A stretch of 64,000 bases of DNA. Source: Candidatus Heimdallarchaeota archaeon (GTDB taxonomy: Archaea > Asgardarchaeota > Heimdallarchaeia > Heimdallarchaeales > Heimdallarchaeaceae). The number at the start of each line of letters is the position of its first letter. Positions within the stretch are counted from its first letter, which is position 1. The stretch spans positions 1-64,000 of the forward strand of contig JAEOSZ010000095.1 of NCBI GenBank assembly GCA_016840095.1, read 5' to 3'. Under the pieces are notes generated by a model. It had not been told where the DNA came from, did not search any database, and saw only the letters and a program-made list of their open reading frames with translations. Both the position numbers and the translations under genes were made by a program. Shown here one piece after another: positions 20,636 to 30,629 of this stretch.

Positions 20636-21376
20636 ATGAGTGACTCTATCCCAATTTTTTTTGATTTTGGTGGAACATTAGTTGATACTTTAGAAGTTAC
20701 AAGAAGAGTATTCAAAGAAGCTTTAGGTAAAGATTTTCCCAGTTCTAAAATCAAACAAATGTACAAAGATACTTCTTCTAAAGGTCAAAGTATGTCAATG
20801 TTCTTCAAGTATCCTGTAAATCCTGTAAAACTTTTAGTCAAGAGAAACAAACTAGTTAGTCTTCAAAGAGAAATTTTTATGGAGGTTGTTGAACTCTATC
20901 CTCAAATACAAGAAACTCTGGAAAAGATAAAAAAATTGGATAAGAACATTTTACTGATAATGGTCACTCAAAATCCAATGATGGAGAACAAAGAAGATTC
21001 ATTAAAACTTATGAAAAGACTTTTTGGTGACAATAATCCTTTTGATCAAATTCTTGCAGGAGAAGACAAACTTGAGCTTATAGTTCACAATTTTGATCCT
21101 GATGATATCGCTAGAGGTGTTTTTGTTGGAGATTTACCAAATGATGTATATGTTTCTGAAATGCTAAGGATTCCATGTTTTGGTGTTACTTGGGGATATT
21201 CCGATCCTGGAGAATTAGCTACACCATTTATCGTTGATGAGATTCCCGAGCTAGTAGAAATGATAAAAGATCATCTTGAAGATTTAGAAGAAGATACATC
21301 AGAGGAAATTGGTGAAATTGAATTTGAAGAAATAGAATTTGATGATTCAGATGATTTTGAACTAATATCAGAATAA
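20636..21376 (+). CDS. HAD-family hydrolase (Gph-like) with acidic tail
   Basis: FDFGGTLVDT, VTQN, VGDLPND, GVTWGY. Confidence 0.8.
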   Translation: MSDSIPIFFDFGGTLVDTLEVTRRVFKEALGKDFPSSKIKQMYKDTSSKGQSMSMFFKYPVNPVKLLVKRNKLVSLQREIFMEVVELYPQIQETLEKIKKLDKNILLIMVTQNPMMENKEDSLKLMKRLFGDNNPFDQILAGEDKLELIVHNFDPDDIARGVFVGDLPNDVYVSEMLRIPCFGVTWGYSDPGELATPFIVDEIPELVEMIKDHLEDLEEDTSEEIGEIEFEEIEFDDSDDFELISE

Positions 21377-21387
21377 GTAGGAACAAA

Positions 21388-21720
21388 TTATCCATCTATA
21401 TCAAGTATAAATTCTGCAACTTCTTTTGCTACACTTGAAATCTTGTCTTCCTTTTTCTTGACTAATTCTGCAGAATCTTTCTCAGCTTCAGTAACTAAAT
21501 GCGCATATTGCTTTGTGTCTCTAGCCTCGGTAATTTTCAGTTTTAAGATTTCTCTTGCTTCTGATTTTGCGTTTTCTAGCCTTCTTACTCTATCGCTTTG
21601 TGCTTTTTCGATTAAAATACTAGATTCATTTTTTGCTTTTTCAATAATTTCTTCAGCTTGTTTTTCAGCAATCTTTATTTGTTCTATAATCTCTTGTTCT
21701 TTAGATGGCAAATATTTCAC
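21388..21720 (-). CDS. A/V-type ATPase subunit H (G-like peripheral stalk)
   Basis: II..IK.AE..AEEII..AK.E....I..A charged coiled coil of about 110 aa, at the edge of the ATPase cluster. Confidence 0.75.
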   Translation of the reverse strand: MKYLPSKEQEIIEQIKIAEKQAEEIIEKAKNESSILIEKAQSDRVRRLENAKSEAREILKLKITEARDTKQYAHLVTEAEKDSAELVKKKEDKISSVAKEVAEFILDIDG

Positions 21721-22760
21721 CAGACATCTCTTTTCTTACAAGTTATGTAAGAGGACAGCATGCAAAGCTTCTTTCTAATGAAGACTTTGAAAACTTAATA
21801 AATAAACCTTATGAAGAATTCATTAATGATTTGACTTCATTCGAAATTGGTGAAAGTTTACGAATGCAATCAACTTATCAATCCCATGAGATAGAAAGAA
21901 TACTAACAAGAAAATTGCTAGATCAGTACGATTTTATTCTAAAAAATATGCCTAAATGGGGAAAGGAGTTCTTTGAAGCTTATATGATTAAATTTGAGGT
22001 TATGAACCTTCAAAGAATAATAAGATATCTATATTCAAAAGCTACAGTTGATTTACGAGAGGTTATCAACTTAAAAGCTCAAGAAATGCTTGGAAGAACT
22101 TCCTTTATTGCGAAACTAATTCAAAGTAATGATCTAGGTGTTTTTCTAGAAAGTATGAAACAAACTGAATACAAATATGTTATTGAGATTTCAGAAAAAA
22201 TCTATAGTAAAGTTGGTGATATTTGGCCAATTGAATTTGCATTGAACGTTCATTATTTGGATCTAATGCTGAAACAAGCTCAAAAACTAAGAGGAGCTCA
22301 GAAAAAAGGAGCACTTAAGTTTGTTTATCAGGAACTATTAACAAACGTGGTACTAGTAAAATTAAAAGCAGATTTTGTTGAAGTTGATGTTGAAGATGCT
22401 CTTCAGCTTATTACCTTGCCAAAAGAGATTCCCTATAAGAGACAAATTGTTTCTTTAATGGAAGAACAATTTTTGAAAAACGATTTAGAGATTCTAAAAT
22501 CACTTAATATTGAGAAACTGACACAAGGAATTGAGCGATATGAAGATGATCAGATGTTTTTGCACATAGAAATAGCTTTGAGAGCAAGAGAGTTGGAAGT
22601 ACTTAGAAAAGCCTTCTATATAGATTTCGGAATTTTAAGCATTCTTAGCTATCTTAAGCAATATGAATCGCAAATTCAGGATTTGAATAAATTGTTATAC
22701 CTCAAGGAGTATAAGTTCCCTGTTGAAAAAACCAGGGAATTAATAGTTAACCTAGTGTAA
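21705..22760 (+). CDS. atpC: A/V-type ATPase subunit C (d/AC39 family)
   Basis: YVRG..AKLLS.EDF..L; KFEV.NL..IIR; ILSYL...E.QI.DL. 351 aa. Confidence 0.85.
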   Translation: MANISPDISFLTSYVRGQHAKLLSNEDFENLINKPYEEFINDLTSFEIGESLRMQSTYQSHEIERILTRKLLDQYDFILKNMPKWGKEFFEAYMIKFEVMNLQRIIRYLYSKATVDLREVINLKAQEMLGRTSFIAKLIQSNDLGVFLESMKQTEYKYVIEISEKIYSKVGDIWPIEFALNVHYLDLMLKQAQKLRGAQKKGALKFVYQELLTNVVLVKLKADFVEVDVEDALQLITLPKEIPYKRQIVSLMEEQFLKNDLEILKSLNIEKLTQGIERYEDDQMFLHIEIALRARELEVLRKAFYIDFGILSILSYLKQYESQIQDLNKLLYLKEYKFPVEKTRELIVNLV

Positions 22761-22768
22761 TCAACTCG

Positions 22769-23248
22769 TCAAACAACGATATTCAAGAGTATAAAAGCTA
22801 TAAGTAATCCATAGATTGCTAAGGCTTCACCAAGAGCTAGATAAATCAGATTTGGTGTGAATACCTCTGAATTAGCTGTTATTGACCCTATAGCTGCTGG
22901 TTCTCCTTTCGCTAATGTTATTGCTGCTCCTAAATTGGAAACAACCATAATGAACATAGCTGCAATGTAAATCCATCCATATGTTGGAGTGAAATCTGTT
23001 AACAGATTTGTCCCATCAAGATAAGGTTGAATTTTTGTATACATTACAAATGCTATCAGTAGACCATATATCGCTAGTGCTTCTGCTAGAGCTAGATAGA
23101 TTAGTATGAAGATGTTTAATCTCTGTTTTTCTGCAACAGCTGCTGCAGCTGCTTGAACTCCTTTCGCTAAAGGGATACCTGCTCCTAATATTGTTAACAT
23201 TGTTCCAGCGATTCCCATAATACCTAATATATATCCTTCAACTGCCAT
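22769..23248 (-). CDS. atpK: A/V-type ATPase proteolipid subunit K (c), two-hairpin form
   Basis: 4 TM helices; duplicated ALAEALAIYGLLIAF / ALGEALAIYGLLIAF. Confidence 0.92.
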   Translation of the reverse strand: MAVEGYILGIMGIAGTMLTILGAGIPLAKGVQAAAAAVAEKQRLNIFILIYLALAEALAIYGLLIAFVMYTKIQPYLDGTNLLTDFTPTYGWIYIAAMFIMVVSNLGAAITLAKGEPAAIGSITANSEVFTPNLIYLALGEALAIYGLLIAFILLNIVV

Positions 23249-25301
23249 ATTTACTCAAATCCATTTCTTTGTTAAACACAAAAATTGGTTTATGCTGAAT
23301 TCCACTGCCTTCATAAAACTTGCTGAAGAATTCATAAAAATGTAATCTTAATGTCTGAATAAAAACTAGTAATCCTTCTAATGCTAAAACAAAGATATTA
23401 CCAATTATCAGAATAAGGATTTTCCAGAGGATAAATCCAACTTGACCTGCTAATGCATTAATAACGCTTAAGAAAACTGCATGAGCGATTAGCATTGCAA
23501 GTATTCTTCCATAAGAAACAGTATTACTTATGAGAGAACTAAATGTTTCTAGTAAATGTAACAAACCCATCCCTACCCCTCCTAAAAAGCTTCTAAGAAT
23601 GTTTTGTCTCTTTTCTTTGAATAAAATGCTAACAATTCCTTGTCCAAAGAGTGTTAAACCTACTCCTATTATTACAGAAACTAGAGCAACTAAGATAAAT
23701 CCTTTACCTGTTGGATCTATTCCTAAATTCAAAATTCCTAAACTTGATAGGAAATAAAGTATTGCTGCATATAGAAAAACTTGAGGTGTTGTTTCTTCTA
23801 AAATTTCTGCATATTCCTTGTGTTTTATTTGATTTATTAATCGAATTGTAATCCCTAAAATTATATGAAGTGCTCCAACAATTAAAGTAAGATTGAATAT
23901 TTCTACTAAGTCCTCAACAGGACTCAAGAAAGGATATTCTGCACCAAATAGATGAACTGGTGTGTGATCTCCATGTTCTCTAATCCCTAACAACTCCACC
24001 AGATGTACACCGAAAGCTTCACCAAATATGAAACCCATTATCGATGATGTGATTCCCATCATCAAAACAAGCAGAAACATCAGTCTAACACTTCTTTTCA
24101 AACCTCGAGCTAATACTCCAGTTAAACCTATAACCAGAAAAATTAAACCATGTCCGACATCTCCAAACATAACTCCAAAGAATATACTAAATGTGAAAAT
24201 TAAGAAAATTGTTGGGTCTACTTCTTTTGCTGAAGGTAAACCATAAAGAGCAACTATGTTTTGATATGATCTCGTGAGAGGATTTGTTGCAGGTACTACT
24301 GGAATATTTTTCATCTCCTCAGAAGGTTCATCATATTCAAGTACAACCTCTGGGAAGTCTTCTAATGCTTTTTCGATATTACTTAATTCCTTCTCTGCCA
24401 CCCAACCTTGAAAAACAATGGTTTTCCTAGTTTTTCTAGCAGAAACATAAATTCGAAAGAAGTGACCGAGACTCTCAATTGACAATTTTATTGCTACAAT
24501 ATTCTGCTTATGATTTATTGCAAATTGCTTGAGCTCATTGTCAATTTTTGTTAATTCGGAGCAAATCTCAGTATATTCATTTAATACCTCTTCTTCAATT
24601 TCTGTCTTATTAAGATGAATTGGACCTTTGTGCTCATGTTGATACCATCTTACAATACTCAGATCTTTGATGAGCCTAGATATCTCTCCTTTTTTTCCAT
24701 GAGCATAGATAAAGAATTTATCTTTAACAAGAGGAATAATCTCTGTATTCGTTACATGAGAAACAAAGTTTTCTGCATCTTCAATTTTTGCAGTATTCAG
24801 AATTCCTACTAAGACTCTTTCGTCTGAATCGACTTCATATGGTCTTTCGCTTTCCAACAATCTGAATCCTTTAGCAATCAGTTCTCCATTTTCTTTCAGT
24901 TCTTGTAACCTCTCTGATTTCTTCTTAAGATTCAGAATCTCTGTTTTATATTCATTAATCTGATGTTCAAGATTAGTCTCTATTTTCTCTAAATCTTGCC
25001 AATCCTCAAATAGCGGAAGAATTGCCTTTTGCTTCTTATAAGCCCTAGCAAGCTTTTGTCCAAATTTTTCCTTAGGTTCTGGAACTTGAGAAACCAAATC
25101 ATTATATGCAGATTCTAATCTTCTTAGTTTTTCCATTTTAGATGATGGATAAAAAACCTCTAATCCTTCTATTGAGATGTTTTCTTTTACCATTAAGCTC
25201 TCAGTTTCAGCTACACTAACAACAACTTTCTCAAAGTCCTCAGAAGGTACAATTATTGTTGCTTCTAACATTTTAGCTGGAAATAATCCCATTATCATCA
25301 C
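23238..25301 (-). CDS. atpI: A/V-type ATPase subunit I (a)
   Basis: YGLP...EVDPT, FFGVMFGDVGHG, SNTVSYGRILA...AH, LEGL..FIQTLRLHFYEFFSKFYEG.G. Confidence 0.96.
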   Translation of the reverse strand: MMIMGLFPAKMLEATIIVPSEDFEKVVVSVAETESLMVKENISIEGLEVFYPSSKMEKLRRLESAYNDLVSQVPEPKEKFGQKLARAYKKQKAILPLFEDWQDLEKIETNLEHQINEYKTEILNLKKKSERLQELKENGELIAKGFRLLESERPYEVDSDERVLVGILNTAKIEDAENFVSHVTNTEIIPLVKDKFFIYAHGKKGEISRLIKDLSIVRWYQHEHKGPIHLNKTEIEEEVLNEYTEICSELTKIDNELKQFAINHKQNIVAIKLSIESLGHFFRIYVSARKTRKTIVFQGWVAEKELSNIEKALEDFPEVVLEYDEPSEEMKNIPVVPATNPLTRSYQNIVALYGLPSAKEVDPTIFLIFTFSIFFGVMFGDVGHGLIFLVIGLTGVLARGLKRSVRLMFLLVLMMGITSSIMGFIFGEAFGVHLVELLGIREHGDHTPVHLFGAEYPFLSPVEDLVEIFNLTLIVGALHIILGITIRLINQIKHKEYAEILEETTPQVFLYAAILYFLSSLGILNLGIDPTGKGFILVALVSVIIGVGLTLFGQGIVSILFKEKRQNILRSFLGGVGMGLLHLLETFSSLISNTVSYGRILAMLIAHAVFLSVINALAGQVGFILWKILILIIGNIFVLALEGLLVFIQTLRLHFYEFFSKFYEGSGIQHKPIFVFNKEMDLSKYGS

Positions 25302-25943
25302 CTATTCAAATAGAATCTCATTTATTTTGGATCTTATTTTCTCTTTACTAACCTTTAGTGTATTCTCAATAGTATAATCGATTTTTATTCTCTCATCTTC
25401 ATCTGTTATGATACAGCCACCTAATGTTTTGATAGAGGTTGTATCAATCTTGAACTGTATCCCCTTTTTTTGAGAAACAGAAGATGTAATTTTGTTTAGG
25501 ACCTCTTTATCTTTCTTATCTCCGATAATCTTCATTTTTTCAGTAGAAATATTTCGTATAGTTGAAGTAATCAGATGTTCAAGGTATGCAAGATATCTCT
25601 TATTTTCTCGGAAATTCAGAATCTCTTTTTCAACTTGCTCAAAAACCTGGTCTATTAAGTTCTCTCTTGCCTGAACCATTATTTTCTTTGCATTTTGTTG
25701 GTATTCAGTTTCTGTTCTTTTTCTGATAAAATCTAATCTTGATGTTTCTTTACTTAATTCTTCTTTTTTGATCTCTTCTGCTAATTTTCTAGTTTCTTTC
25801 TCAATCTCTTCTAGTTTTTTCTTTGTGTCTAGTTGAATCATTCTTGCTTCTTTTTCTGCTTCCTTCTCAATCTTAGAAAGTAATCTGGATAGAGCGTTTT
25901 CCTCTTCTTTTCCGTTTTTTTGATTGAGTTGTTCTTTCTTCAT
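25302..25943 (-). CDS. atpE: A/V-type ATPase subunit E
   Basis: N-terminal coiled coil; C-terminal LGG.II...D.RI.IDYT. Likely ATG at 25943 after GAGGG (track start 26000 overlaps the USP gene). Confidence 0.9.
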   Translation of the reverse strand: MKKEQLNQKNGKEEENALSRLLSKIEKEAEKEARMIQLDTKKKLEEIEKETRKLAEEIKKEELSKETSRLDFIRKRTETEYQQNAKKIMVQARENLIDQVFEQVEKEILNFRENKRYLAYLEHLITSTIRNISTEKMKIIGDKKDKEVLNKITSSVSQKKGIQFKIDTTSIKTLGGCIITDEDERIKIDYTIENTLKVSKEKIRSKINEILFE

Positions 25944-25953
25944 ATTATTCCCT

Positions 25954-26382
25954 CTAGATTGGTAATAGCAAGATAGGTATGTCTGAAATTTCAATAACAT
26001 ATCTTACATAATTTTTCAGAAGTCTTTTTGTTAGACTTTCTTTTCTAGTTCCCATAACTATGAAATCAACTTTTTCTCTTTTTGATGTTTCAATTATGCT
26101 TTCTGCAACTAAACCTTGATTTGATTCAGATGTCATATACAAATGAGTATCTGAAAATTCGTGTTTTAGTTGCTCAAGAATGTTATCATATTCCATCTGA
26201 TATTGTTTTAGTAGCTCTTCAACTGTAACATTTCTATAACCTGCAACATTTTCTAAATTTTCTTTATCAATTACATTTAATAGATGAATTTCAGTAACCC
26301 AATCGCAGTAGAGATCAAGAACTTGCTTAATAAGCTTCTTTCCGCTCTCAAAGTCACCAATAGCAACTAATGCTTTTTTCAT
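25954..26382 (-). CDS. Universal stress protein (UspA domain)
   Basis: KKALVAI.., IHLLNVID, G...E.IIE......DFIVMG.R, V..VI..SDIPILLL. Confidence 0.88.
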   Translation of the reverse strand: MKKALVAIGDFESGKKLIKQVLDLYCDWVTEIHLLNVIDKENLENVAGYRNVTVEELLKQYQMEYDNILEQLKHEFSDTHLYMTSESNQGLVAESIIETSKREKVDFIVMGTRKESLTKRLLKNYVRYVIEISDIPILLLPI

Positions 26383-27026
26383 CTTTTTCTCCTTCTTATT
26401 TCATTTTTTATTTCAATTTTTCTTTTGAGTTTCTTAATTGTGTAAATATTTTCAAGATCATTAGATTCCAAAACATTTTCGATATATTTTATAATATTTT
26501 CAAATCTTACACGATATATCTTATCCAGAGCATTTAAGCTTATTTGGGTTGAATTGAGAGTTCGTATTACCCTATAAGCAAAATTCTCTATTTCTGCTAA
26601 TTCAATTATAAGATCAAAAGTATCCCGAAATCTTTTGGCTGTAACCCAGAGTAAACTCGAAATACCAAAGAATCCATACGAGGGTTCTGGAAGATTAGCT
26701 AGTTTTAGATCTCTGTACTCTACCCCCATATACTCCAATGGAGTTGAGTTAATATCAACATCTTTTGGTATTGTTTCACTGAATACATTGATCATATCTT
26801 TGCCTAATTCTGATTCAGTTTTTATATATTCAATATAGGCTTCACTAAGATTCTTTTCCATAATTTCTCTCATATTGATTGCCTGAGAAGAGATTATTTG
26901 TAACTTCATCAGAAGAGCTTCATATTTCTCCTTAAGCAATTCATATGCTCTTTCAACAAGCTGAAGCTTCTTTTTATATTTCAGTAAATTATCTTTTGTG
27001 GGAGGGATTGATATTGTTTCTCTCAA
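26379..27026 (-). CDS. atpD: A/V-type ATPase subunit D
   Basis: PTK.NL...KK.L.L..R.Y.LLK.K; MGV; LAE.E; T...LNAL. Confidence 0.92.
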   Translation of the reverse strand: MRETISIPPTKDNLLKYKKKLQLVERAYELLKEKYEALLMKLQIISSQAINMREIMEKNLSEAYIEYIKTESELGKDMINVFSETIPKDVDINSTPLEYMGVEYRDLKLANLPEPSYGFFGISSLLWVTAKRFRDTFDLIIELAEIENFAYRVIRTLNSTQISLNALDKIYRVRFENIIKYIENVLESNDLENIYTIKKLKRKIEIKNEIRRRKR

Positions 27027-28417
27027 ACTGAATCTCCTCCTTCTTTGAGAATGTGTTCATCAATTAATTCTCTGGAAACCTTAGTTAATTCGGATTCTGG
27101 TAAGTTTGAAAGTAATGACCAGCCAATATTCAAGGACGATTCTATATTTCTATAAGTATCACCTTGATTAATGTAAATTTCCTCAAATTTATCTGCAAAT
27201 TCGTAGAGAATTTGATCAAGACGGTTGAGTTCTTTTCTGCCTATAACTTCAGCAAGTTTTCTTTTATCTAATCCTTCTGCATAGGAAGCATAGAGTTGAT
27301 TACTCAATGATGGATGATCCTTTCGTGTGAAACCCTCACCAATTCCATCTTTCATTAATCTAGACAAAGAACCTAAGACATCAATTGGAGGATAAATCCC
27401 TCTATTATGTAATGAACGATCTAAGATAATTTGTCCTTCTGTAATGTAACCTGTAAGATCTGCAATGGGATGGGTAATATCATCATTCGGCATTGTCAAA
27501 TTTGCAATAAGAGTTATACTTCCTTGAGAATCTTCTATTATTCCCGCTCTTTCATAAATTGCTGCAAGGTCACTGTACATATATCCTGGAAAACCTTTTC
27601 TGGAAGGGACTGTTTCCAGTGAAACAGATATTTCTCTTAATGCTTGGCAATAATTTGTAATGTCAGATAAAATAACTAGTACATGATAGTCTTTATCAAA
27701 AGCTAAGTATTCTGCTGTAGTTAATGCTACTCTAGGTGTGAGTAATCTTTCTGCAGCTGAGTCTGAAGCTAAATTTGTAAACATAACTACTTTGTTTAGT
27801 GTACCTGTCTCTTCGAATAACCTCTGGAAATAAATATAATCATCCATAGTTAATCCCATAGCACCAAATACTATTGCAAACTTTTTATTACCATCAATTT
27901 CAGCAATCCTTGCTTGCTTCACAATTTGTCCAATGAGTCGGTTGTTTGGTAATCCTGCTCCTGTGAATATTGGTAATTTCTGACCTCTAACTAAGGTATT
28001 CATGGAATCTATAGAGGATATGCCTGTTTCAATATAGTCTTTTGGATATATTCTGGAAGTTGGATTGATAGGTGATCCGTTGATATCTCTGTATTCGTCT
28101 GAATAAATACTGGGTAAACCATCTAATGGTTCTCCAAGAGAGTTGAAAATTCTACCAATCATATCTTCTGAAACAAATAATTGCATAGTTCTTCCAAAGA
28201 ATTCTGTTTCTATTTGGTCTTTATCTATTTCATATGTTCCTTGATATAACAGGATTATTACTCTCTCTTCTTCAATTGCTAGAACTCTACCTTTTCTGGA
28301 AGGTTTCCCTTTGAGTTTGACCTCTAGATACTCTCCCATTCGGATGCCAGAAACATTCTCTATAACTATTAGAGGACCACGAATTTCTGATACACCTTTA
28401 ACATTTATTCTAGCCAT
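27023..28417 (-). CDS. atpB: A/V-type ATPase subunit B
   Basis: TLVRGQKLPIF, PR.ALTTAEYLA, PGYMYSDLA.IYERAG, DDITHPI.DLTGYITEGQI, SLSRLM. Likely ATG at 28417 (MARINV). Confidence 0.97.
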   Translation of the reverse strand: MARINVKGVSEIRGPLIVIENVSGIRMGEYLEVKLKGKPSRKGRVLAIEEERVIILLYQGTYEIDKDQIETEFFGRTMQLFVSEDMIGRIFNSLGEPLDGLPSIYSDEYRDINGSPINPTSRIYPKDYIETGISSIDSMNTLVRGQKLPIFTGAGLPNNRLIGQIVKQARIAEIDGNKKFAIVFGAMGLTMDDYIYFQRLFEETGTLNKVVMFTNLASDSAAERLLTPRVALTTAEYLAFDKDYHVLVILSDITNYCQALREISVSLETVPSRKGFPGYMYSDLAAIYERAGIIEDSQGSITLIANLTMPNDDITHPIADLTGYITEGQIILDRSLHNRGIYPPIDVLGSLSRLMKDGIGEGFTRKDHPSLSNQLYASYAEGLDKRKLAEVIGRKELNRLDQILYEFADKFEEIYINQGDTYRNIESSLNIGWSLLSNLPESELTKVSRELIDEHILKEGGDSV

Positions 28418-28421
28418 TTTT

Positions 28422-30224
28422 TTACACCCTATATCCGTATTTAGATCCAAGTTCTTCCATTTCAGTATGGATGTAATCTTCGATTTTATTCATTTGCATA
28501 ATATCGTCGTTTTGAACATCCTCTTTCATTCGTTTCAGAATTTGAACCGATTTAAGAGCAAGTATGAGAGAAATTGGACATCCGTTCTTAATTAGAATCT
28601 CTGCTCTGCTGTAAAATAGCAGCATGAGCTTCATCATTTTCATTTGTTTCTCAATAGGACAAAAAGAGTCCACTGGATTGAAAGCACTTTGTTGAAGAAA
28701 ACCATCTTTGATAATATCTGCAACTAAGATTATAAGTTGCTCATCAGCAGGTAAAGCTTTTGAGCCTATCAATTCAACTATGTGTTGTAGCTCTTCATCC
28801 TTTTGGAGAACATTGAACATCTCTTGTCTATAACGTCCCCAATCCTCTAATCCTGATTCTAGAGCCCATTCTTCAATAATTTCAACATAACCAGAGTAGC
28901 TATTTAACCAATTTATAGAAGGAAAATGTTTCCTATTAGCTAATTTAGGATCCAAACCCCAGAAGGTTTTAACAAACCTCTTAGTATTGGCAGTAACTGG
29001 TTCACTGAAATCTCCTCCTGGAGGAGAAACAGCTGCGGTTATGTTAATCGATCCTTCTCTATAAGGAGAACCGATTGTAACTACTTGACCAGCTCTTTCA
29101 TAGAAATTAGCTAATCTAGCTCCAAGATAAGCTGGATATCCCTCCTCAACTGGCATTTCTTCCAATTGACCAGCAATTTCTCTAAGAGCTTCGGCCCAAC
29201 GCGATGTACTATCTGCTGTCAGAAGAACATTTAGTCCTTGATCTCTGAAATACTCAGCCATTGTAATTCCCATATAGATTGAAGCCTCTCGAGCAGCTAC
29301 AGGCATGTTAGAGACATTCGCAACCAATAGTGTTCTATCCATCAATGGATTTTGAGTATGAGGATCTATGAGTTTAGGAAATTCTCTAAGAACATCTGTC
29401 ATTTCATTTCCTCTCTCACCACAACCTATGTAGATAACAACATCAGCATCACTCCACTTTGATAATTGATGCTGGAGGACTGTCTTGCCAGTCCCGAATC
29501 CTCCTGGTATCGCTGCAGTTCCTCCTTTAGCAATTGGGAAAAACATATCGATTATTCTTTGACCTGTGACTAATGGTTCATGAACTGGTAATTTCTTCTG
29601 GAAAGGTCGTGCAACTCTAACAGGCCATTCATGCATCATTGATAATTCAGATTTCTTTTTATCAAATCCTTTAAGTTCTAAAATTGGATCAATAATTCTG
29701 AATTCACCTTTATCCTGTAATGATATCAGTTCACCATGTGTATCCGGAGGTGCAATGATTTTGCTTATAATTGTTTCTGTTTCTTTTACAAAACCTAATA
29801 CATCTCCTCCTTTCAAAATATGCCCTCTGGTTAAATCTTTATTTGGTTCAAACAACCATTTCTTTTCTCTATCAAGAGCATTAACTTGAATACCTCTTCC
29901 AATGAATGAAGAAGATGAGTTCTTCTTAATTTGCTCTAGTGGTCTTTGAATTCCATCAAAGATGTTTGCTAATAATCCTGGTCCTAATTCAGCTGAAAGA
30001 GACTTACCAGATGGATACACTGGTTCATTAATTTTTAAACCTTCGAGAGGTTCATAAACTTGAACTGTTGCAAAGTCAAATTCGATTTCTATAATCTCTC
30101 CTACAAGTCTCTCCTCACCTACATAAGTTATCTCACCCATTCTGTAAGAAGATAAGCCTTTAACTTCGACTGTAGAACCTTTAATAGATACAATCTTTGC
30201 TCTATCTTCAACTGAATTAGTCAT
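28422..30224 (-). CDS. atpA: A/V-type ATPase catalytic subunit A
   Basis: Walker [53 protein letters not shown]. No intein. Confidence 0.98.
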
Positions 30225-30317: not shown

Positions 30318-30629
30318 ATGTCTGATTCTATTACAACAAAGAAAGCATATGTTATAGGTGCACGTGAAACAGTGAGAGGATTCAATTTAATTGGTATTCC
30401 AGGAGAAGAAGTATCAACACCCGATGAAACACTTACAACCTTAGATAGAATTTTGCAAGAAGACTATTCATTGATTATGATATCTGCTTCATCAATTATA
30501 GAAATTGAAGATACTATTGAACAGATTAGATTAGAAAACTCTACTCCAATCATTGTTCTTTCTGATGCTAATATGAAACTTGATCCGAAAGATATCGAGA
30601 AAAAATTTAGAAGATTCATAGGTTATTAG
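30318..30629 (+). CDS. atpF: A/V-type ATPase subunit F
   Basis: VIG..ETV.GF.L.GI.G, P.I..L, C-terminal R.FIG. 103 aa. Confidence 0.88.
   Translation: MSDSITTKKAYVIGARETVRGFNLIGIPGEEVSTPDETLTTLDRILQEDYSLIMISASSIIEIEDTIEQIRLENSTPIIVLSDANMKLDPKDIEKKFRRFIGY

Follow-up and report, generated by a model that had tools for sequence, protein, structure and literature searches.

Inverted atpC shares an opposite-strand start overlap with an atpH-like gene in an A/V-type ATPase cluster conserved across two Heimdallarchaeial genera

The A/V-type ATPase cluster in the window (the whole 64,000-nucleotide stretch of contig JAEOSZ010000095.1 that was analysed, from a Candidatus Heimdallarchaeota assembly) carries its subunit C gene on the opposite strand between the genes for subunits K and H, with the C start codon overlapping the start of H. 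Comparison with related genomes confirms the layout, the overlap and their conservation. The best explanation as a whole, to which we give a probability of roughly 0.6, combines an old inversion, a cluster read as four units, and facing C and H promoters embedded in the partner genes. The inversion would have been fixed before two Heimdallarchaeial genera split, and would have left atpC, within a compact A-type cluster, facing atpK tail-to-tail and atpH head-to-head; the four units would be F (+), A-B-D-Usp-E-I-K (-), C (+) and H (-).

The locus, delimited by ORF listing and Pfam scans of the window, spans 9.2 kb (Table 1). It resembles the canonical archaeal A1AO ATP synthase operon, whose order is ahaHIKECFABD, in bringing together nine core subunits (A, B, C, D, E, F, H, I and K), and differs from it in its A-B-D-Usp-E-I-K order, in the placement of C and F on the opposite strand, in the terminal position of H and in the insertion of a universal stress protein gene (Usp), which lies between D and E. 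The last gene of the A-B-D-Usp-E-I-K unit is atpK; K contains internal direct repeats, and both of its hairpins retain the glutamate of LxxGEALAIYGL. Relative to the remainder of the ATPase cluster, atpC is inverted. Its TAA stop codon (22758-22760) and the TGA of K (22769-22771, minus strand) lie 8 nt apart, exactly to the base as the first-pass annotation of this DNA had placed them, and the geometry of the C/H junction bears out the accompanying statement that no intergenic promoter space exists there. An opposite-strand C between same-strand K and H, all three encoding ATPase subunits, is the layout that characterizes a non-contiguous operon. No description of this cluster's layout was found in the literature searched. 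The genome encodes two complete A/V-ATPase sets, the compact window cluster and a scattered set spread over at least three contigs. The A subunit of the window shares 52-58% identity with its counterparts in Thermococci and Thermoplasmata, and the C type of the scattered set is present in 45 of the 47 genomes of the order.

Table 1. Genes, junctions and predicted signals of the A/V-type ATPase locus, in window coordinates
Feature	Position	Strand	Basis or remark
HAD-family hydrolase, convergent with H	20636..21376	+	PF13419; stops 11 nt apart
atpH-like peripheral-stalk subunit (H/G type), 107 aa	21388..21711	-	start TTG 21711
H longest ORF, 110 codons	21388-21720	-	begins at GTG 21720
Candidate C promoter CAGCAATC TTTATTTG	21666..21681	+	inside H codons 13-20; TATA at -31 from C ATG
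atpC, A/V-ATPase subunit C (AC39/d), 351 aa	21705..22760	+	PF01992, TIGR02923
Predicted 5'-5' transcript overlap, ~72 nt	21705..21776		two TATA positions plus 30-nt TATA-to-start distance
Shine-Dalgarno-like GGTGA for H	21717..21721	-	10 nt before TTG 21711; contains GTG 21720
Candidate H promoter TTCATAAGG TTTATTTATTAA	21795..21815	-	inside C codons 31-37; predicted start site ~21776
Small hairpin CCCTG..CAGGG plus T6 (22731-22726)	22718..22737	-	38 nt after K stop
Spacer between convergent C and K stops, 8 nt	22761..22768		sequence
atpK, proteolipid with duplicated hairpin, 159 aa	22769..23248	-	PF00137 in two stretches
atpA-B-D-usp-E-I, tightly packed/overlapping, upstream of K	23238..30224	-	ORFs, Pfam; order kept in relatives
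atpF, divergent from atpA	30318..30629	+	PF01990; NF002384 E 7.6e-10; TATA TTTAAAC at -30

Subunit C gives a full-length match to PF01992 (E 1.1e-30, 107.6 bits versus a cut-off of 29), which begins at residue 13 and extends to residue 345 of 351, and it also matches TIGR02923 AhaC (E 9e-20). Public gene calls assign it 270-341 aa, and the window's own call gives 309 aa from a TTG at codon 43. These shorter calls are truncations, because C is exactly 351 aa long in all genomes, a stop codon directly precedes its ATG in 5 of them, and codons 7-42 exhibit coding periodicity (entropy 0.36, 0.17 and 0.84 at codon positions 1, 2 and 3). The truncation was probably made to avoid the opposite-strand overlap. 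TTG codon 43 is rejected as a start: relatives have TTA, CTG or ATT in its place, and the 42 residues before it are coding. A start at this codon agrees with the public 309-aa call and with a plus-strand reading of the conserved box within C described below. ATG 21705 can be taken as a firm prediction of the C start.

The H-like ORF appears to encode a subunit of the H/G type, as indicated by sub-threshold but consistent matches together with size and position. Its three best database matches are all H/G subunits, namely NF006256 V-type subunit H (E 1.4e-4; 21.9 bits versus a curated cut-off of 107), AhaH TIGR02926 (E 1.1e-3; 19.2 versus 48.5) and yeast subunit G, PDB 2k88 (E 0.07, from a profile of the aligned H sequences); PF16999 is likewise below its cut-off (17 versus 28 bits). 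The AhaH alignment is full-length, spanning profile positions 1-85 of 85. H has 107-110 aa, adjoins C in both genera and is the sole unassigned subunit of the ATPase set. The first-pass annotation had offered GTG 21720 or TTG 21711 as the H start that C ATG 21705 overlaps; the overlap stands with TTG, and GTG falls away. GTG 21720 is rejected because it is GAG in genome G006 and because the three codons before the TTG vary non-conservatively (K/R/I/N, Y/F/C/S/L), following the C frame and not the H frame. The fourth codon of the ORF is TTG in 19 genomes, GTG in L012, and ATG in G006 and G043. The Shine-Dalgarno-like site occupies the same place in all relatives, as GGTGA or, in G006, GGAGA, and among 1878 long ORFs of the genome such pentamers peak at -12 to -10 (245 in the bin versus ~10 in background bins). 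The most likely H start is TTG 21711, and H would therefore comprise 107 aa and share a coding overlap with C of 7 nt rather than 16.

Comparisons of related genomes provide evidence that the layout is real and long maintained. In 21 genomes of the genus containing Candidatus Heimdallarchaeota archaeon AB_125, tblastn searches with the window proteins recover the order HAD (+), H (-), C (+), K (-), I (-), and C overlaps H there just as in the window; a C probe found the same protein in 21 of the 24 genomes of that genus. Phylum-wide, one further genome has such a C: G043, from a sister genus in the same family, in which C, 50-63% identical, precedes K (-) and I (-) and overlaps at its start an opposite-strand H (41% identical). 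The G043 C is split over two contig ends, and both junctions are still visible. The H (-), C (+), K (-) layout is present in 22 of the 22 loci examined in the two genera, a count whose members are not independent because the genomes compared are related. C is 62-91% and H 49-79% identical within the genus, and 50-91% and 41-79%, respectively, over both genera. The full A-B-D-Usp-E-I-K order is present in the longer relative loci. The HAD neighbour is found throughout the genus and is absent beside H in G043, and the C/K spacer measures 8-27 nt within the genus and 80 nt in G043. Among 400 Asgard genomes sampled, the window-type C is restricted to these two genera, and no other Asgard C subunit exceeds 29% identity to it. 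The C relatives P0031 and P0032 are 46% identical; these two and P0029 lie outside the layout count.

A misassembly, which the first-pass annotation had asked to have excluded, finds no footing in contigs from sequenced samples: a second-sample contig bridges the C/K junction without differences, and the C/H junction is bridged by short contigs of a possible source sample, with no single piece spanning the whole stretch. Since the layout is the same in all 22 loci with C identity as low as 50%, it is neither misassembly nor chance. An invertible switch was considered and rejected, as a search of the window found no meaningful inverted repeats flanking C and all genomes share one orientation.

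Third-position entropy, computed from a codon alignment of 19-20 genomes in 895 eight-codon windows covering HAD, H, C, K and the last 350 codons of I, picks out a candidate promoter inside each partner gene. The lowest of all 895 windows is H codons 13-20 (0.04 versus an H mean of 0.97), the second-lowest is the I/K overlap, followed by C codons 28-33 (0.28-0.47, where the whole of C averages 1.10) and by the overlap of C with H; the residues encoded in the H and C blocks are themselves conserved, and part of this low entropy is due to AT-rich codon bias. The I/K overlap is known to have a dual use and so acts as a positive control; among the 895 windows, no comparable dip occurs at the 5' ends of HAD or K. 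Both low-entropy blocks read AAnnTTTATTT.

The block inside H, CTTTATTTG, shows no difference among the 22 loci, even at the non-preferred codons ATA and AAG. Genome-wide, TTTAWWW peaks sharply 30 nt before start codons, marking a class of leaderless mRNAs. In their promoter profile, A occupies positions -4 and -3 relative to the TATA box, and positions -2 and -1 are uninformative; within the cluster itself, the A and F promoters carry TTTATTA at -29 and TTTAAAC at -30. The C box, AAtcTTTATTT at -31, combines the BRE AA with a TTTAWWW about 30 nt upstream of the start codon, as in leaderless promoters. The earlier deduction that the C promoter must lie inside H holds, and a synonymously frozen BRE/TATA-like box sits there; C would be translated from a leaderless mRNA initiated by this box within H codons 13-20.

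The block inside C, at codons 28-36, contains a conserved minus-strand AAnnTTTATTTATTA box at 21795-21815, where third-position entropy is 0.28-0.41, and H would be transcribed from its own minus-strand promoter, AAggTTTATTTATTAA, within C codons 31-37. AA-nn-TTTATTTATTA is kept in G006 and G043 despite changed C residues (P to D or S, E to D); AAGG, AATC and AAGA precede an unchanged TTTATTTATTA among genera, with variation only at the uninformative nn. Conservation is weaker in the left flank of the block, where a plus-strand promoter would have its BRE. By the 30-nt rule, the predicted H start site near 21776 is an A preceded by T. A matrix built from tRNA promoters of this genome (TTTAAAA type) recognizes the two boxes poorly (0.4 and 4.3 bits) and was set aside, the profile of leaderless protein genes being more suitable. 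The same matrix scores the plus strand of the second block better (7.8 bits), and for this reason the block could be bidirectional, like the BRE-TATA-BRE promoters of Pyrococcus furiosus, in which TATA boxes can fire both ways (PMC6640164), or could serve another purpose. We infer that the two conserved boxes act as promoters.

Because each gene carries a promoter-like box for the other, C and H look like separate transcription units with overlapping 5' ends, and read-through from K to H is not needed. Some overlap of the opposite-strand transcripts, the property that marks an excludon, follows from geometry alone: the C mRNA includes 21705 and the H mRNA includes the Shine-Dalgarno site at 21721, so the two overlap by at least 17 nt (21705-21721). 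The candidate promoters extend this considerably. They would face each other ~125 nt apart, which would make the mRNAs complementary over roughly their first 72 nt. H would be translated from TTG 21711 behind the GGTGA ribosome-binding site, and its predicted leader of ~65 nt would be antisense to the first 24 codons of the leaderless C mRNA. Such an overlap would allow transcriptional interference, or a duplex covering the start codons of both genes and the ribosome-binding site of H. Of the 31 genomes of the family, 27 carry a gene with an RNase III domain, which makes duplex processing at least feasible. We infer the transcription start sites, and any regulatory effect, from the sequence; built-in regulation of A1-Ao coupling, as first proposed for this locus, would be speculation.

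Oligo-T tracts terminate transcription in archaea, and the 3.8-fold sense-strand depletion of T6+ runs in long ORFs of this genome (0.30 per kb sense versus 1.15 antisense) fits this mode. The sense strand of A through K contains a single T6 in 7.5 kb. The 1056 nt antisense to C contain six T5+ runs, four of them T6 (3.8 T6 per kb versus 0.30 sense), and the first T5+ run lies only 30 nt into the C antisense. This strand carries 1-7 T5+ runs in every genome, L016 having a single T5 only; T5 runs are weak terminators. The small hairpin and T6 just beyond the K stop (Table 1) may mark where the A-to-K transcript ends, within the reading frame of C; 9 of 19 genomes retain the T6 and the others have a shorter run, and third-position entropy at this place is 0.75 versus 1.10. 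In G043, the 80-nt K/C spacer has minus-strand T5 and T7 runs following K and a plus-strand T7 following C, a terminator-like arrangement that looks like two separately terminated units. Opposite H, the plus strand contains many T5-T6 runs, making read-through from HAD into C unlikely.

These signals bear on the possibility that H is mainly the last cistron of an A-B-D-Usp-E-I-K-(antisense C)-H mRNA, with which the C mRNA would pair in reciprocal regulation. Non-contiguous operons are a described concept (PMC7154746), exemplified by menE-menC-MW1733-ytkD-MW1731 of S. aureus (Saenz-Lahoya 2019, reviewed in PMC7154746), and the likeness is evident: an opposite-strand gene is embedded in one functional set, here the genes of a single complex, and the 8-nt and overlapping junctions leave no room for intergenic signals. 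H also has a Shine-Dalgarno site like an internal cistron, no strong conserved terminator directly follows K within the genus, and the RNase III-domain gene of the family would suit such a system. However, the conserved promoter-like box upstream of H inside C, the T5+ runs antisense to C in every genome (four T6 in the window) and the T5 and T7 directly after K in the sister genus all argue against it, and this reading appears unlikely. Unlike S. aureus, this archaeon uses BRE/TATA promoters and terminates transcription at oligo-T tracts, and its embedded gene belongs to the same complex and is not an antagonist. The first-pass annotation had H transcribed either by read-through across the antisense of C or from a promoter inside C; the conserved box favours the promoter, the T5+ runs count against read-through, and the non-contiguous operon as formulated there finds no support. 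That interpretation seems partly supported overall, in that promoters inside the partner genes are suggested and a read-through operon is not indicated.

A second possibility accepts the facing promoters and adds function, the layout having been selected to make C and H expression mutually dependent or exclusive; such a switch could set the C:H ratio or gate assembly of the second ATPase. Excludons with 5' overlaps are a described class, known from Listeria (Sesto 2013, reviewed in PMC7154746), and share with this locus neighbouring opposite-strand genes whose mRNAs are necessarily complementary at their 5' ends. The obligatory overlap spans the C start codon and the H Shine-Dalgarno site and start, both genera retain the arrangement despite altered flanking spacers, and RNase III occurs in the lineage. 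Nevertheless, C and H belong to the same enzyme and are needed together, which leaves mutual exclusion without an obvious advantage; selection is not required for gene order to persist within a family; and head-to-head start sites in Pyrococcus are often both primary and antisense without shown function (PMC6640164). A selected switch is a tentative proposal, and a rather doubtful one. Classical excludons are marked by a long 5' UTR of one partner and demonstrated mutual exclusion; for C and H it is the coding sequences themselves that overlap, and each promoter would lie inside the other gene. The S. aureus system is defined by co-transcription across the antisense gene, against which the sequence evidence at this locus argues. 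The closely spaced divergent genes of Pyrococcus, whose primary start sites are also antisense, are a further archaeal likeness, but their head-to-head pairs have a median spacer of 117 bp and back-to-back promoters (PMC6640164), compared with a spacer of -7 nt and candidate promoters that face each other across the two start codons here.

It is extremely improbable that the layout is an artefact, either of a misassembled inversion or of true starts lying downstream so that the genes do not overlap. The shortened public calls for C, among them the window's own 309-aa call, point that way. This reading is, as far as the sequence comparisons go, already refuted by the same layout in 22 independently assembled genomes and by other-sample contigs that bridge C/K, by TTG codon 43 not being conserved as a start while C residues 1-42 are conserved, periodic and Pfam-covered, and by the lack of any in-frame H start downstream of 21711, which also disposes of the earlier concern that later starts might remove the overlap.

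On the preferred reading of separate C and H units with facing promoters, two subunit genes of one essential enzyme have long been kept with an opposite-strand start overlap, and each gene's candidate promoter is written into the other's codons, a clear Asgard case of sequence constrained by coding and regulation at once. The C/H arrangement would, as it stands, be a further example of a known organisation and a curiosity of genome organisation. In practical terms, C is 10-81 residues too short in public gene calls, the preferred start for H is a TTG, and the locus yields concrete promoter and start-site predictions for an Asgard lineage. Antisense coupling, if true, would extend the excludon and non-contiguous-operon concept to archaea. 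It is improbable that the facing C/H promoters, possibly with some K-to-H read-through, constitute an archaeal counterpart of these systems in which RNase III processes the 5' duplex; if they do, the arrangement would set the ratio of the rotor-coupling C to the stator H, or would switch assembly of the second A-type ATPase.

The genome to which the window belongs (G000) carries a second complete A/V-ATPase set, which is dispersed across at least three contigs (C104, C118 and C14). The subunit C type of this second set was found in 45 of the 47 genomes of the order; the C type of the window was found in two genera only. Public gene calls for the window-type C are often N-terminally shortened, to 270, 308, 309, 321, 337 or 341 residues versus 351, and these truncations likely result from gene finders penalising opposite-strand overlap with the H gene.

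Locations of the features discussed here; L-numbers are fetched loci and C-numbers are contigs of G000
Feature	Location	Strand	Remarks
N-terminal part of C affected by shortened calls	window 21705-21830	+	
K proteolipid gene	window 22769-23248	-	
Matches from other organisms' contigs	window 23315-23348		
Low synonymous variation in subunit I	window ~23320-23350	-	
Universal stress protein gene	window 25954-26382	-	between atpD and atpE
C/K spacer of G043	L092:868-947		
RNase III-domain gene	G000:C145:40783-41154 (L093)	-	PF14622, E 3e-22
Second A/V-ATPase set, G000	L051:340-4528; L051:13708-14010; L052:6843-10075; L075; L078; L079		
Second-set A+B, D, F	C104		separate sites
Second-set E	C14		
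Second-set I	C118		1064 aa, unusually long; adjoins C (330 aa)
Second-set K			100 aa, single hairpin; adjoins two Snf7/ESCRT-III genes

Within the cluster of the window, the universal stress protein gene overlaps the 3' end of atpD by 4 nt, and its position is unchanged in relatives, though the identity of the protein there is only 60–72%. Synonymous variation is also low close to the C-terminus of subunit I, with third-codon-position entropies of 0.41–0.68 in eight-codon windows of the aligned genomes. This stretch, alignment codons 313–321 of the subunit I fragment (its last 350 codons), may represent this subunit's conserved arginine helix; brief matches at this place come from the same metagenomes, in contigs that belong to other organisms.

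Across the whole of G000, the sense strand of long ORFs is 3.8-fold poorer in T runs of at least six residues than their antisense strand, and the protein genes fall into two classes, leaderless genes with a TATA element at -30 versus genes with a Shine-Dalgarno sequence (GGTGA and similar) at approximately -11. The tRNA genes are preceded by a cGAAAnnTTTAAAA box ~45 nt upstream. An RNase III-domain gene is present in 27 of the 31 family genomes, including two single-contig genomes, and no RNase III-domain match was found in four archaeal control genomes.

The window's K proteolipid is an internal duplication, marked by direct repeats of 60 nt and 42 nt that lie 255 nt apart. Both K hairpins retain the conserved glutamate within L(A/G)EALAIYGLLIAF, which suggests that neither ion site has been lost. 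In G043, a genome of the sister genus in the same family, K stops a few codons further on than in the window, and the spacer between C and K is 80 nt long, versus 8 nt in the window, with oligo-T runs on both strands. Thus, the extreme compaction is specific to the AB_125 genus, which holds the window's genome.
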